Position numbers and translations under genes: made by a program. Shown in pieces: positions 20,503 through 26,200 of a DNA stretch of 42,004 bases. A model generated the notes under the pieces. That model was not told the DNA's origin. It did not search any database and saw only the letters and a list, made by a program, of their open reading frames with translations. The DNA lies in assembly GCA_963762565.1 (NCBI GenBank), contig CAVXLD010000015.1, forward strand, positions 1 to 42,004. Direction: 5' to 3'. This stretch comes from an uncultured Verrucomicrobiae bacterium (GTDB lineage: Bacteria; Verrucomicrobiota; Verrucomicrobiia; Chthoniobacterales; JAFAMB01). Within the stretch, counting starts at the first letter, position 1; each line of letters opens with the position of its first letter.

Positions 20503-20701
20503 AACCGCGAATGGACACGAATGAACGCGAAGAAAGGCGCGGAGCGCTGTAAAACCTTAGCCTAGGTTGAGCTTGCGAGGCCTAGGAAGGATCGAAAAAC
20601 AAGCCAGCGCTGAAAGCGCGTCAGAGTTGGAGCGAATCACGTACAAACATGCACGCAAATAATAGACCTTCATTCGTGTCCATTCGTGTCCATTCGTGGT
20701 T
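20503..20701. repeat. Inverted 9-mer-unit arms (CACGAATGG) enclosing a CCTAGG REP-like arm
   Basis: AACCGCGAATGGACACGAATGAACGCGAA / TTCGTGTCCATTCGTGTCCATTCGTGGTT (26/29); 20539-20626 resembles 37522-37610. Confidence 0.85.
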
Positions 20702-23187: not shown

Positions 23188-23348
23188 AAAGATCCACGGA
23201 TTACTCAGATTACGCAGATTACTCTTTAAGATCGATTACTACCAAAATGGCTGCAGACTTTAGCGCTAGGGGAATGGTTTCCATTGATCGTCGACGTAAT
23301 ACGATCACAGAACGAAATCTGTGTAATCTGCGTAATCTGTGGATCTTT
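23188..23348. repeat. Inverted 9-mer-unit arms (CGCAGATTA)
   Basis: AAAGATCCACGGATTACTCAGATTACGCAGATT / AATCTGTGTAATCTGCGTAATCTGTGGATCTTT (30/33). Confidence 0.88.
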
Positions 23349-24152
23349 AATCTGCGGATTGTGGGATTAGTCCTCACCGCGTTTTTCGCCATCACCGTAG
23401 CGTACGGCGAGGAGACTAAGCCCTCCTGGGAAAGTTCTGTCACTACCGATAAGGGTCCAGGAAAGTTTCCCGCCCCTCCCAACGTCCATCTTACCTACCG
23501 TTTTGGGTGGAGCGGAATCACAGCCGCGGAGGCCGAAGTGCGTCTGGTTAATAGAGACGACACCACAAAAATAACTGCCTCAGGCGGCACCACTGGCTTT
23601 GCCCGGACCCTGTTCAAGTGTGACATCGACCATGAGTGCACTTCCCAGCGCAATGCTCTCCTGCCCATCCATATCGTGCAGGACGAGAAGTATTCTTATG
23701 AGACCGTGCACACGACAATCGAGTTCAATGAAAAGTCTGTGACTAGTCTTCGGGAAGTAACCCCAACCAAAGATCCACCTAAACCTAGGACCTTGGAGTT
23801 TTATCCAGTATTTAGCCTGGAAACAGCACTCCTCTGGCTGCGGAGCCAGCCGCTCAACGACGGCGAAAGAGAAGTCATGGCAGTGTATGCTAACAACGCG
23901 GCTTATCTGGGAACGATAAAAGTCGTTGGTCGAGAACGAATCCATATCGGCCAAACCGACCGCAACGCGATAAAGGTCGAATTCAATTTCAAAACCATCG
24001 ATCAACACCTCCAGCTAAGAACGTACAAGCGCTTCAAAAGCGGCCGTGGCTGGATCTCTGACGACGAGTACCGGCTGCCGCTTCGCGTAGAAGCAGATAT
24101 TTTTATCGGCTACGTTTTTGCCGAACTCGAGACCAGCGACCTGGGGATGTAG
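23247..24152 (+). CDS. DUF3108 domain exported protein
   Basis: LTYRFGWSGITAA, WISDDEYRLPLRVEADIFIG; the true start may be GTG 23361. Confidence 0.75.
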   Translation: MAADFSARGMVSIDRRRNTITERNLCNLRNLWIFNLRIVGLVLTAFFAITVAYGEETKPSWESSVTTDKGPGKFPAPPNVHLTYRFGWSGITAAEAEVRLVNRDDTTKITASGGTTGFARTLFKCDIDHECTSQRNALLPIHIVQDEKYSYETVHTTIEFNEKSVTSLREVTPTKDPPKPRTLEFYPVFSLETALLWLRSQPLNDGEREVMAVYANNAAYLGTIKVVGRERIHIGQTDRNAIKVEFNFKTIDQHLQLRTYKRFKSGRGWISDDEYRLPLRVEADIFIGYVFAELETSDLGM

Positions 24153-24162
24153 GGGCGTCGCG

Positions 24163-24799
24163 CAGAGGACGCAAAAAGAAAGCCTCGCGCAAAGGACGCA
24201 ACGGACGCAACGTAAGGCAGGAAGAGAACCCGGATTGGGGCCACGCCAACCACTACTACAAACGTTGGAGCCTCGCGCAGAGGGCGCAACGGATTATCTT
24301 TCAGTCATGTTCCACCAAGCGATTTGCCAGTCGTTTAATGCCATTCTTAAGATGTTCCTCGCCAAAGTTGATCAGGTATCCGAGGCGCAAGTTTGTTAAT
24401 CGAAGCTGCGTCAAAACTTGCTTTGCATGAACACGCTCCAGAGCCTCAACCGACTTCAGCTCTACAATAACCTTATTTTCTACGATCAGGTCTGCCGAAA
24501 TCCTTCATCAAAGGACAGGCCCCGATAGATGATGGGGACCGATTTCTGGCGCTCGACTTCCAACCCGATTCCGCGCAGCTCATGTGCTAGAACGACCTCA
24601 TAAACGGTTTCTAACAGCCCAGGCCCAAGCTCGGTATGAATCTCGAAAGCAAAATCTAAGATCCTTTTCCCTAATTGATTTTCAGTCATAGTGAGACCCG
24701 GTTGTAGCAAGCGTCTACTTGGGCCTCAATCTACATTTCCGCCCGCTTTCGTTGCGTCCTTCGCGTCCTCTGCGCGAGGCTTTCTTTTTGCGTCCTCTG
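24163..24799. mobile_element. Candidate element: GxxExxY gene bracketed by 50-bp inverted 9-mer-unit arms
   Basis: 24163-24212 vs 24750-24799 IR with about 3 mismatches; extra partial arm at 24269-24293. Confidence 0.7.
24301..24689 (-). pseudogene. GxxExxY protein (PD-(D/E)XK nuclease-like), 1-bp frameshift
   Basis: MTENQ...LGPGLLETVY...GFR; after restoring one base near 24496 it reads ADLIVENKVIVELKSV...KQVLTQLRLTNLRLGYLINFG...HD*. Confidence 0.9.
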
Positions 24800-25169
24800 T
24801 CAGGGTCTCGTGTTCACAACCGTGACGGTAGCGTCGGAGCTGTTGCTCACGTAAAGCGCTTTGCCGTTTCGGGGCCATCGCCGCCGCTACTGGCACATTG
24901 CCAACCGTGATCGGTGAACCGACGATCGCTCCGCTAAGAGCGTTGAGCATGACAACTTGATAGCCGGATCCGGCTGGGTTCACCTGAGGAACGTAAAGGT
25001 AACGCCCGGTCGGGGTCAATGCCGGCAGAACAGGAACCGCCGAGGATAACGGGCTCGGCGCAAATAGGAATGGGTTACCGATGGCGGCGCCGGTTACGGC
25101 GTTACAGGCAGTGACATAATTGTCTCCGTCCGCGACATACAGCCTTGTGGCGGCGACATTGATCGTCAT
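24800..25169 (-). pseudogene. C-terminal remnant of a YVTN/YncE-type beta-propeller
   Basis: LTPTGRYLYV, ITVGNVPVAAAMAP; removing one A near 24868 gives NGKALYVSNSSDATVTVVNTRP*; no N-terminus. Confidence 0.7.
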
Positions 25170-25250
25170 CTTCTTCTGAAGAACCTTAGAACTCCAACGC
25201 CCCGGAGATTCAGGTCTCATTCCCGAGGGATCGCCTGCCCCGCAACTTCG

Positions 25251-25295
25251 AACTCAAAACCTAAAACCTAAAACCTAGAACCTAGACCCTAGAAC
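25251..25295. repeat. Heptamer tandem repeat (AACCTA[A/G])
   Basis: AACTCAA AACCTAA AACCTAA AACCTAG AACCTAG ACCCTAG overlapping the exonuclease stop. Confidence 0.75.
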
Positions 25296-26200
25296 GGTAG
25301 CTCCCCCTGCCCTAGCACCACATTCTCCGCTTCTCTCTGTACCTCGGGTAGAAGCGTCTTGAACTCATATCGTTCAAGCCCGCGGATATATTCTGGATAG
25401 TCCGGCTTGATTCGGAGCGCGGAAATTTCTACCGGCAAGGGATGGTCCAGCTCCAATTGAACCATTTGCCGATTCTCCCGAATCTGTTTTTCTGACTGCT
25501 GTAACCGAAGCCGCAGTTTTTCATTTTTCACATCCGGCAGATGCTGGAGCAGATTTTCAACCGTGCCGAATTCCTGGATCAGGTTTGCCGCCGTTTTGTG
25601 TCCGATCCCTTCGATCCCGGGAATGTTGTCGACCGTGTCTCCGGTAAGGGTCAATAGCTCCACGATTTGATGAGGAGGGACCTCCCACTTCCGCGTCACC
25701 TCGACTTCACCCAACAGCGCATGAGAGTCTTTCGGGTTTCTTAGGTCGGCCTTATTGGTGGAATAGACTGTGACCCGCGAGTCCACGAGCTGAAAAAGAT
25801 CCTTGTCGTTGGTCGCTAAGACGACCTCTACACCCGTTTTACGTGCCTCCATGACGTAGCAGCCCATCAGGTCGTCCGCTTCCGTATCCGGCTTCGAAAT
25901 TGAGACCAGCCCCATGGCCCCGCAAAAAGACTGGATGAAGTTTAGCTGGGGGATCATTTTATCGGGCATCGCCTCCCGCTGCTGTTTGTAACCGGGCTGT
26001 AACGTCACCCTTTTCTGGGGCATCCCTTCATCCCAAAAAACCGCGGCCAAGTCCGGCCTCACATCCTTTATCATTTTTCGCACGGTCTTGACGAATCCGT
26101 AGACCGCGTTGGCCGGCTCTCCCTTCGAATTCGTCAGATTCTGGATGGCGTGAAACGAGCGATAAACGTAGTAATGGCCGTCAATGAGGAGCAATTTCAC
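25289..26200 (-). CDS. Stand-alone 5'-3' exonuclease / flap endonuclease (PolA N-terminal-like)
   Basis: LLIDG, RSFHA, YKQQR, EADD, NDKDLFQL, GDTVDNIPGIEGIGHKTA; GTG at 26200. Confidence 0.92.
   Translation of the reverse strand: MKLLLIDGHYYVYRSFHAIQNLTNSKGEPANAVYGFVKTVRKMIKDVRPDLAAVFWDEGMPQKRVTLQPGYKQQREAMPDKMIPQLNFIQSFCGAMGLVSISKPDTEADDLMGCYVMEARKTGVEVVLATNDKDLFQLVDSRVTVYSTNKADLRNPKDSHALLGEVEVTRKWEVPPHQIVELLTLTGDTVDNIPGIEGIGHKTAANLIQEFGTVENLLQHLPDVKNEKLRLRLQQSEKQIRENRQMVQLELDHPLPVEISALRIKPDYPEYIRGLERYEFKTLLPEVQREAENVVLGQGELPF

Follow-up and report, generated by a model that had tools for sequence, protein, structure and literature searches.

The closest described relatives of the arrangement considered here are the Ssn/NTS/SRM elements, in which a small single-domain nuclease gene lies between its own hairpin-forming repeats (Chenal et al. 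2025, PMC11893778). According to the accessible part of that report, the repeats also occur scattered and gene-less, each homologue has its own variants of them, the unit comprises no transposase, and cleavage by Ssn has been demonstrated in vitro. In the RAYT/REPIN and TIRYT/TIRtron systems, the enzyme gene is chromosomal, is inherited for the most part vertically and has cognate repeats at its flanks; the portions of the literature at hand further describe gene-less intergenic inverted doublets, several families per genome and a long co-evolution of gene and repeat (PMC3116915, PMC3733652). The GxxExxY family, PF13366, is listed as being of unknown function (PMC3424549), and the GxxExxY passage in the accessible part of the myRT preprint is unrelated to repeats. 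Among titles and the beginnings of abstracts, we found no description of a pairing between GxxExxY genes and repeat arms, which subscription journals or supplements could hold.

Here, we analyse such a pairing in a stretch of DNA of 42,004 nt (hereafter the window), which is contig C15 of genome G000 (6.1 Mb, 15 contigs). Soil metagenomes contain the stretch, and no RNA dataset is among the listed datasets containing it. The closest named homologues of its GxxExxY gene belong to Chthoniobacterales or Verrucomicrobiota. The features of the locus are as follows.

23247..24152, plus strand: left host neighbour, a DUF3108 gene, at whose stop the cassette has its outer boundary, conserved within the genus
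24155..24216, plus strand: left arm, with head units at 24155 and 24182 and a 9-bp-period array, purine-rich strand inward
24269..24293, plus strand: inner, third copy of the arm, immediately past the GxxExxY stop (gene strand), pairing with 24757-24781 at 88%
24301..24689, minus strand: GxxExxY gene (TIGR04256 / PF13366), 389 nt (130 codons less one base), a pseudogene here
24495/24496, minus strand: 1-nt deletion, two codons ahead of the invariant Asp (D67 in the intact sibling)
24690..24745, minus strand: leader from the right arm to the start codon, common to same-clade cassettes and retained in internally deleted copies
24746..24799, minus strand: right arm, reverse complement of 24163-24216 (93%)
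24800..25220, minus strand: right neighbour, a small frameshifted gene with a weak propeller-like match (PQQ_2, E 0.079)
25247..25283, plus strand: heptamer array of the AAAACCT type, the right arm of another palindromic element that is complete in L212
25289-26269, minus strand: right-hand host neighbour, a 5'-3' exonuclease gene

The arms constitute a 54-nt inverted repeat (24163-24216 and 24746-24799) that is 93% complementary and spaced by 529 nt; with the arm sequence left out, the next-best inverted pair in 23500-25500 measures at most 17 nt. The inner part of the arm is an array with a 9-bp period, reading CGCAGAGGA CGCGAAGGA CGCAACGAA on the gene strand, and ahead of it stand a non-periodic head, AGCCTCG, and an A-rich linker. 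On the left the motif begins at 24155, 2 nt past the DUF3108 stop (24150-24152), and on the right the outer head unit is shortened where it meets the minus-strand TGA stop at 24800-24802. On either strand the arms can pair into a long stem that surrounds the gene, and no transposase or recombinase domain was found among the 37 window ORFs scanned. The first-pass annotation of this DNA had correctly recognised arms of about 50 bp bracketing a GxxExxY gene, their 9-bp units, the stop abutting one arm at 24800 and a single missing base near 24496; its placement of the other arm 10 bp past the stop at 24152 has to be corrected to the 2 nt given above.

The small gene at 24800-25220 was not found in the five same-genus genomes (G001-G005), and it abuts DUF3108 directly in contigs with an empty site; a base at 24867 within it is missing from X9 and X13 contigs. 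The gap between the DUF3108 and exonuclease genes accepts several unrelated hairpin families, and in L212 the heptamer element after the DUF3108 stop encloses a further, REP-like palindrome. Elsewhere in the window (20506-20698), a gene-less palindrome of the CRCGAAT family lies between two genes of a MoxR/vWA/BatD cluster.

The GxxExxY gene reads on the minus strand from an ATG at 24689 to a stop at 24303-24301, with GPGLLETVY read directly. Its two halves score 60.6 and 69.8 bits against TIGR04256, for which the curated cut-off is 35 bits, and an intact sibling scores 144.2 bits. The missing base at 24495/24496 was judged against the intact paralogue and all orthologues. The break is real and recent, since the same break, with no indel listed, is seen in contigs of four out of four runs from one study (runs that may include the source sample and are thus not independent), and contig X6 from another study, otherwise identical over 24238-24509, has the extra base and is intact. 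An assembly error as the cause of the frameshift was ruled out by these same contigs. Being frameshifted, the window copy cannot be the autonomous member as which it had been proposed; an intact same-clade cassette with the same arms is found at G000:C11:163317-163703 and is its closest paralogue (84.5% nucleotide identity).

The protein comprises 129 residues, with no accessory domain and no CRISPR context. PF13366 is its sole Pfam match at E <= 1, nothing besides PF13366 / TIGR04256 was matched, ESM Atlas returned GxxExxY clusters only, and the single match of a PDB sequence search (E 0.22) was rejected. Residues E27, Y30, D67, K79, Q91 and F109 are invariant in 101 sequences, E77 is conserved in at least 90%, and D..ExK is present in 168 of 176 proteins. 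QxxxY, a motif of the RecB family, occurs in 127/176, and in the focal clade the Y of this motif is replaced by Q (31/176). The predicted model (pLDDT 93.5) matches restriction-endonuclease-like folds. Foldseek gave no match at E <= 0.001; its best were SSO0001 (4ic1; E 2.9e-3, TM 0.56), which we take to be a Cas4, and the Hjc structure 2wiw (E 1.3e-2), with the Cas4 structure 4r5q also among the best. A wide fold search was led by restriction-endonuclease-like chains with Z of 8.5-7.0, the best being 3ijm (rmsd 3.3 over 100 residues). Since Z values of 8.5-7.6 are common to several unrelated nucleases, the fold does not pick a substrate. The model supports a minimal PD-(D/E)XK nuclease fold for this protein and says nothing firm on what it acts upon.

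The window copy belongs to a larger population of genes and repeats in G000. TIGR04256 has 14 matches there, including 11 near-full genes, two of which are split or frameshifted. Judged by eye, inward arms stand at 11/11 of these genes, each with a private word of 7-10 nt (CACAGAG, CGCAGAT, CACGAAT and CACAAAG are examples); by a strict two-word pattern, arms are present on at least one side in 11/11 and on both sides in 6/11. Four of the six G000 ORFs that are strictly enclosed by inward arms are GxxExxY genes, and none of the ten Y1 transposase genes above the cut-off, which are located elsewhere, has these arms nearby under the strict pattern. Arms of three or more words number 503 in the genome, and C1 holds 124 three-word arms versus 8 and 12 in same-length Markov simulations. 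Arm pairs are inward in 141 cases versus 35 outward, with spacers below 300 nt in 125 of the 141, and gene-less inverted doublets are present in intergenic space. Fifteen family patterns were defined by the analyst, 11 from GxxExxY flanks and four from heptamer arrays. In 223 of 225 two-direction clusters every opening arm precedes every closing arm, which is the inward arrangement, and where two families are closed in one cluster (29 pairs), 26 are nested, two sequential and one crossing.

The exact focal-arm pattern has 28 matches in G000 and 13-23 in each of G002-G005; in G001 neither this pattern nor the protein query found a match. Internally deleted same-clade copies (G000:C14:122981, G000:C5:122407 and G002:C293) retain both arms, the leader and the 3' end of the gene. 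No target-site duplication beyond chance was found at 17 closed elements, one of which has a direct repeat of at least 4 nt, compared with a mean of 0.17 and a maximum of 2 in shuffles. No clean pre-insertion site was obtained for the derivatives on C14 and C5 or for a second-site cassette in G004; at these positions the relatives have rearranged neighbours or other palindrome families.

Other genes in G000 share parts of this layout. Four-helix-bundle genes of TIGR02436, presumably not nucleases, have nine matches, and the six with inspected flanks (G000:C5:443059, C11:106028, C11:16010, C7:441183, C1:1345332 and C5:382239) adjoin inward tandem arms of 7-9-nt words, a parallel layout with a different protein. 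At G000:C10:94538-95683, a two-gene unit that resembles a toxin-antitoxin pair by eye sits between two direct copies of the focal-family palindrome, as if carried, and about 22 kb at G000:C12:477500-499100 are dense in focal-family and nested palindromes.

The association extends well beyond this genome. In the focal subfamily (80 loci, 76 with full flanks), the inverted-repeat score reaches at least 16 at 51/76 loci versus 10/500 control ORFs, the controls being six-frame ORFs of G000 that are not taxon-matched; arms are enriched around GxxExxY genes, as the cassette idea had anticipated. Across the whole family, 184 loci entered the analysis, 181 gave a full match and 176 had flanks; 129 of the 176 score at least 16 (48/69 in the class sample), and 47 fall below. 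The arms point inward at 118 of the 129 scoring loci. One Acidobacteriota clade (L184, L192, L193 and L203) has outward arms, the opposite of those 118.

The word itself varies with the protein. Its tail (AG or AT) requires three changes on the protein tree against a shuffle minimum of 20 (151 labelled rows, with 25 unlabelled rows left uncounted), and its head (TC or CC) two changes against a minimum of 35 (137 labelled rows, 39 uncounted), each with 200 shuffles. A single genome can contain both word types, and 12 named phyla share the TC head. Judged on this tree, the arm word follows the protein rather than the host. Protein identity correlates with arm similarity over 114 loci (rho 0.38; permutation maximum 0.10), kin among these loci not being independent, and in a nearest-neighbour check two of eight G000 arms (L002 and L007) are clearly closer to the arms of the nearest outside proteins than to the average.

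Among 151 class genomes, 88 have a GxxExxY gene and 63 have no match; at least five arm matches are found in 84/88 of the former versus 10/63 of the latter. For family f17, arm matches number 11 and 18 versus 0-1 in 19 genomes; for families f26 and f18, gene-less genomes still have 4-17. A profile search of five of the ten gene-less arm-bearing genomes found no full gene (nothing in four, weak partial matches in one), and 20 arm regions sampled in gene-less genomes contained no GxxExxY. Either orphan arms persist in such genomes or the gene is unassembled. GxxExxY is rare on plasmids (8 of 72,556 records), and viral contigs contain two loci.

Comparison of the focal site among relatives captures the cassette in several states. 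Of the five same-genus genomes, G002 has it oriented as in the window, G003 and G005 hold it inverted, G004 retains the left arm only, and G001 has neither arm nor gene. Nine metagenome contigs add alleles, forward in L205 and L210 and reverse in L208 and L209; L207 has left arms and ends 153 nt further on, and L211/L212 have no cassette, with the heptamer element in its place. When L204 (the G004 allele), L206 (the G002 allele) and L211 (the same as L212) are omitted, 11 alleles remain for comparison, with the gene reverse in four, forward in four and absent in three. L205 and L209 are 98.2% identical in their DUF3108 flank and opposite in cassette orientation. Further broken alleles are those of G004 and L208, the latter interrupted at a different place from the window copy.

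Empty forms of the site also occur. In X3, a close strain, 24151 is joined to 24804 with eight other letters (one contig, depth 2.5); in X13, about 95% alike, 24153 is joined to 24797 at depth 18.4, and a second X13 contig retains the beginning of the left arm; in X9, 115 other letters replace 24153-25264. These forms may be pre-insertion or post-excision states, either being compatible with the joints. L210 has its DUF3108 flank fused to the flank of the second locus and is a recombinant or a chimera. G004 carries a broken same-clade cassette at a distance of 3 kb, in a position occupied by another palindrome in G003. No strand-changing joint that would mark inversion within a population was listed among the contigs, and no co-conversion gradient was seen at the focal site. 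At the focal site of G002:C325, G003:C382 and G005:C467, amplification of the arms has produced 2-4 higher-order units, each about 90-110 bp long and with the leader included, and their number varies between genomes.

The gene tree at the focal site broadly tracks the tree of the DUF3108 flank and host, and the reverse alleles of G002 and L209 cluster in it (98/94). Values of dS (0.42-0.64 in the gene versus 1.07-1.22 in DUF3108) had suggested that the window allele was transferred from G003-like donors; this idea was dropped, as the gene tree broadly matches the flank tree. The locus varies in presence and absence, with both orientations, gene-less alleles and empty joints, and the first-pass view of a selfish cassette survives to the extent that arms and gene behave as a unit. 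The picture of active spreading is not supported, because the gene tree follows the host, the closest paralogue is 84.5% identical and there is no target duplication.

Similar behaviour is found at other loci of the genus, where 40 GxxExxY loci fall into nine orthologous groups and 11 singletons, clades map to loci with the word retained, and three of the nine groups include both orientations. Values of dN/dS lie between 0.01 and 0.14 in all unsaturated pairs, indicating purifying selection on the genes. At the L001 site, G002 and G005 are 88-100% identical per 50-nt window more than 100 nt outside the arms and 62-88% identical nearer to them (left 62, 84, then 96-100%; right 88, 86, then 94-100%), with a gene that is 70.1% identical, saturated in dS and flipped in orientation. 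By these identities we read the site as an allele swap by recombination, a reading that concerns mainly one locus in draft genomes; ordinary homologous recombination leaves the same trace in the flanks as homing-type co-conversion. Inheritance thus appears to be mainly vertical, with flips, losses and some exchange in addition. Beside the second cassette, a host gene is inverted (G003:C775:6433-7250 versus G000:C11:162527-163242), and because focal-family arms border this gene, the arms may also mediate flips of host genes.

We interpret the locus, with a probability of roughly 55%, as a recently frameshifted gene-plus-arms cassette that encodes a small protein of PD-(D/E)XK fold; this protein likely recognises and cuts the repeat word specific to its clade, after which host repair likely yields flips, deletions, swaps and nested gene-less hairpins. 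Co-variation makes it likely that the protein recognises its own arms, since the same word is retained in different phyla at protein identities of about 60%, the paralogues of one genome have different words, and no G·U bias is seen. We envision that the protein would bind its word, most likely where the DNA is single-stranded or has been extruded as a hairpin, and would nick or cut there with its conserved E/D/ExK site. A nuclease alone has no joining activity, and since the cassette has no transposase or recombinase either, the break would be left to the host, whose repair would proceed through strand invasion or template switching from one arm to another. As a result, the interior would be inverted or lost, or it would be copied, in one orientation or the other, into a further hairpin that carries arms. 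Symmetrical arms would allow both orientations, loss of the interior would leave gene-less hairpins, and repair into an existing hairpin would produce nesting. The window copy would now be a passive substrate, which the intact C11 sibling could serve in trans. Movement would be slow, and the cassette would be mainly a long-term chromosomal resident, like RAYTs.

Several points weigh against this interpretation. Arms and gene are physically linked, so that shared descent alone would give some co-phylogeny; inversion and excision between 50-bp inverted repeats are possible without a dedicated enzyme, and passive hairpin instability can also give flips and deletions. The layout needs no nuclease, since four-helix-bundle genes of this genome are enclosed by similar inward arms of heptamers. 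Further points are the 47 of 176 loci below the repeat threshold, the ten gene-less genomes with arms, the nearest-neighbour check that was clear for only two of eight G000 genes, fold matches that stay short of E <= 0.001 and the Q that the focal clade has for Y in QxxxY. A more far-reaching version, in which GxxExxY cassettes would be mobile DNA without transposase or recombinase, with a 129-residue Cas4/RecB-like nuclease reading a 7-10-nt word on hairpin DNA and driving the copying of cassettes and gene-less forms into hairpin centres, is tentative and, as a whole, rather doubtful.

The binding and cutting steps would be shared by an arrangement in which the protein recognises the arms and is kept for a host function, for example cutting incoming or replicating single-stranded DNA that bears the word, as SsnA does in Neisseria, with flips, losses and nesting as by-products of hairpin instability. 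Strong purifying selection, mostly vertical inheritance at fixed loci and the rarity of the gene on plasmids and viral contigs all agree with such a role, for which the accessible part of PMC11893778 offers a precedent. We nevertheless consider it unlikely: breakage and loss are frequent (2/11 G000 copies frameshifted; L208 and G004 broken), 63 of the 151 class genomes have no match, and many paralogues with private words suit selfish lineages better than one host task. Quite improbable in our view is that a different enzyme acting in trans, Y1/RAYT-like or another transposase, mobilises the arms, with GxxExxY as a co-descended passenger. The ten Y1 genes of G000, the arms that persist in genomes without detected GxxExxY, the second protein family with a similar layout and the general knowledge that a nuclease alone cannot join DNA would all be accommodated, but 0/10 Y1 genes lie near these arms, four of the six strictly arm-enclosed ORFs are GxxExxY, and no target duplication accompanies the elements (1/17 with at least 4 nt); moreover, the word tracks the GxxExxY clade across phyla and differs between the paralogues of one genome.

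The position of the cassette right after a stop codon and between convergent genes, and the long stem around the gene that can fold from either strand, could also point to arms that act as RNA, as two-way terminators or processing stems that keep an inserted gene harmless, with a protein that does not read them. This is very improbable, however, as mismatches in the paired arms (gene strand) comprise 79 G·T versus 74 A·C (p = 0.75), with no preference for G·U, the primary word, and not pairing alone, is conserved by clade across phyla, and Rfam gave no family at its gathering score (best 21.3 of 42 bits, treated as chance). Recognition and cutting of the arms by the encoded protein, followed by host repair, is the reading that we favour.

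GxxExxY/PF13366 is widespread, being present in 88/151 class genomes, yet listed as of unknown function, and the flanks provide each clade with a specific candidate substrate and a built-in control for cross-specificity, which makes the function directly testable. If cutting of the arms were confirmed, this would be the third unrelated enzyme fold tied to its own dispersed palindromes, after HUH (RAYT) and GIY-YIG (Ssn). Intergenic hairpins, which run into the hundreds per genome (G000 has 503 three-word arms), would then have an explanation, as would one source of local inversions and rearrangements, and very compact nucleases with sequence specificity could be obtained from the family. Should transposase-free mobility also hold, the intergenic palindromes of many environmental phyla would come mainly from this family, which would also be a natural library of very small sequence-specific cutters of single strands or cruciforms whose target can be read from the flanks.

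Set against known systems, the GxxExxY cassettes share features with several and coincide with none of those compared. Fold-level matches, the E…D…ExK residues and QxxxY recall Cas4/RecB-like nucleases and Hjc, whereas no match reaches E <= 0.001 and the short protein is devoid of accessory domains and of a CRISPR context. Terminal inverted repeats, internally deleted derivatives and both orientations at one site are found in MITEs, IS elements and invertons; here, no transposase or recombinase domain was found among the 37 window ORFs scanned and no target duplication at the elements, and, in contrast to MITEs and IS elements, near-identical full copies of the cassette are not dispersed. Like RAYT/REPIN, GxxExxY is chromosomal, largely vertical and accompanied by gene-less intergenic doublets. 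RAYT and TIRYT are HUH Y1 tyrosine transposases (PF01797) that cut and join, whereas GxxExxY has no such domain and, unlike them, occurs with same-clade genes at more than one locus, internally deleted copies and families nested in each other. The likeness to RAYT/REP with a different enzyme class, which the first-pass annotation had drawn, therefore holds in genomic behaviour, and a nearer parallel is found in Ssn/NTS, where the gene likewise has cognate repeats on either side and further copies of them are scattered over the genome. Ssn is a GIY-YIG protein (cd10448) with cleavage shown in vitro, whereas GxxExxY is a putative nuclease with a PD-(D/E)XK fold; its repeats, unlike those of NTS, form a pair of inward arms built from tandem 7-10-nt words, with the gene enclosed in one long stem, and neither flips nor nesting is reported for Ssn/NTS in the accessible part of PMC11893778. 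Taken together, the window copy is an ordinary-looking broken member of an apparently unpublished system, to which, by analogy of layout, Ssn/NTS is closer than RAYT/REP.
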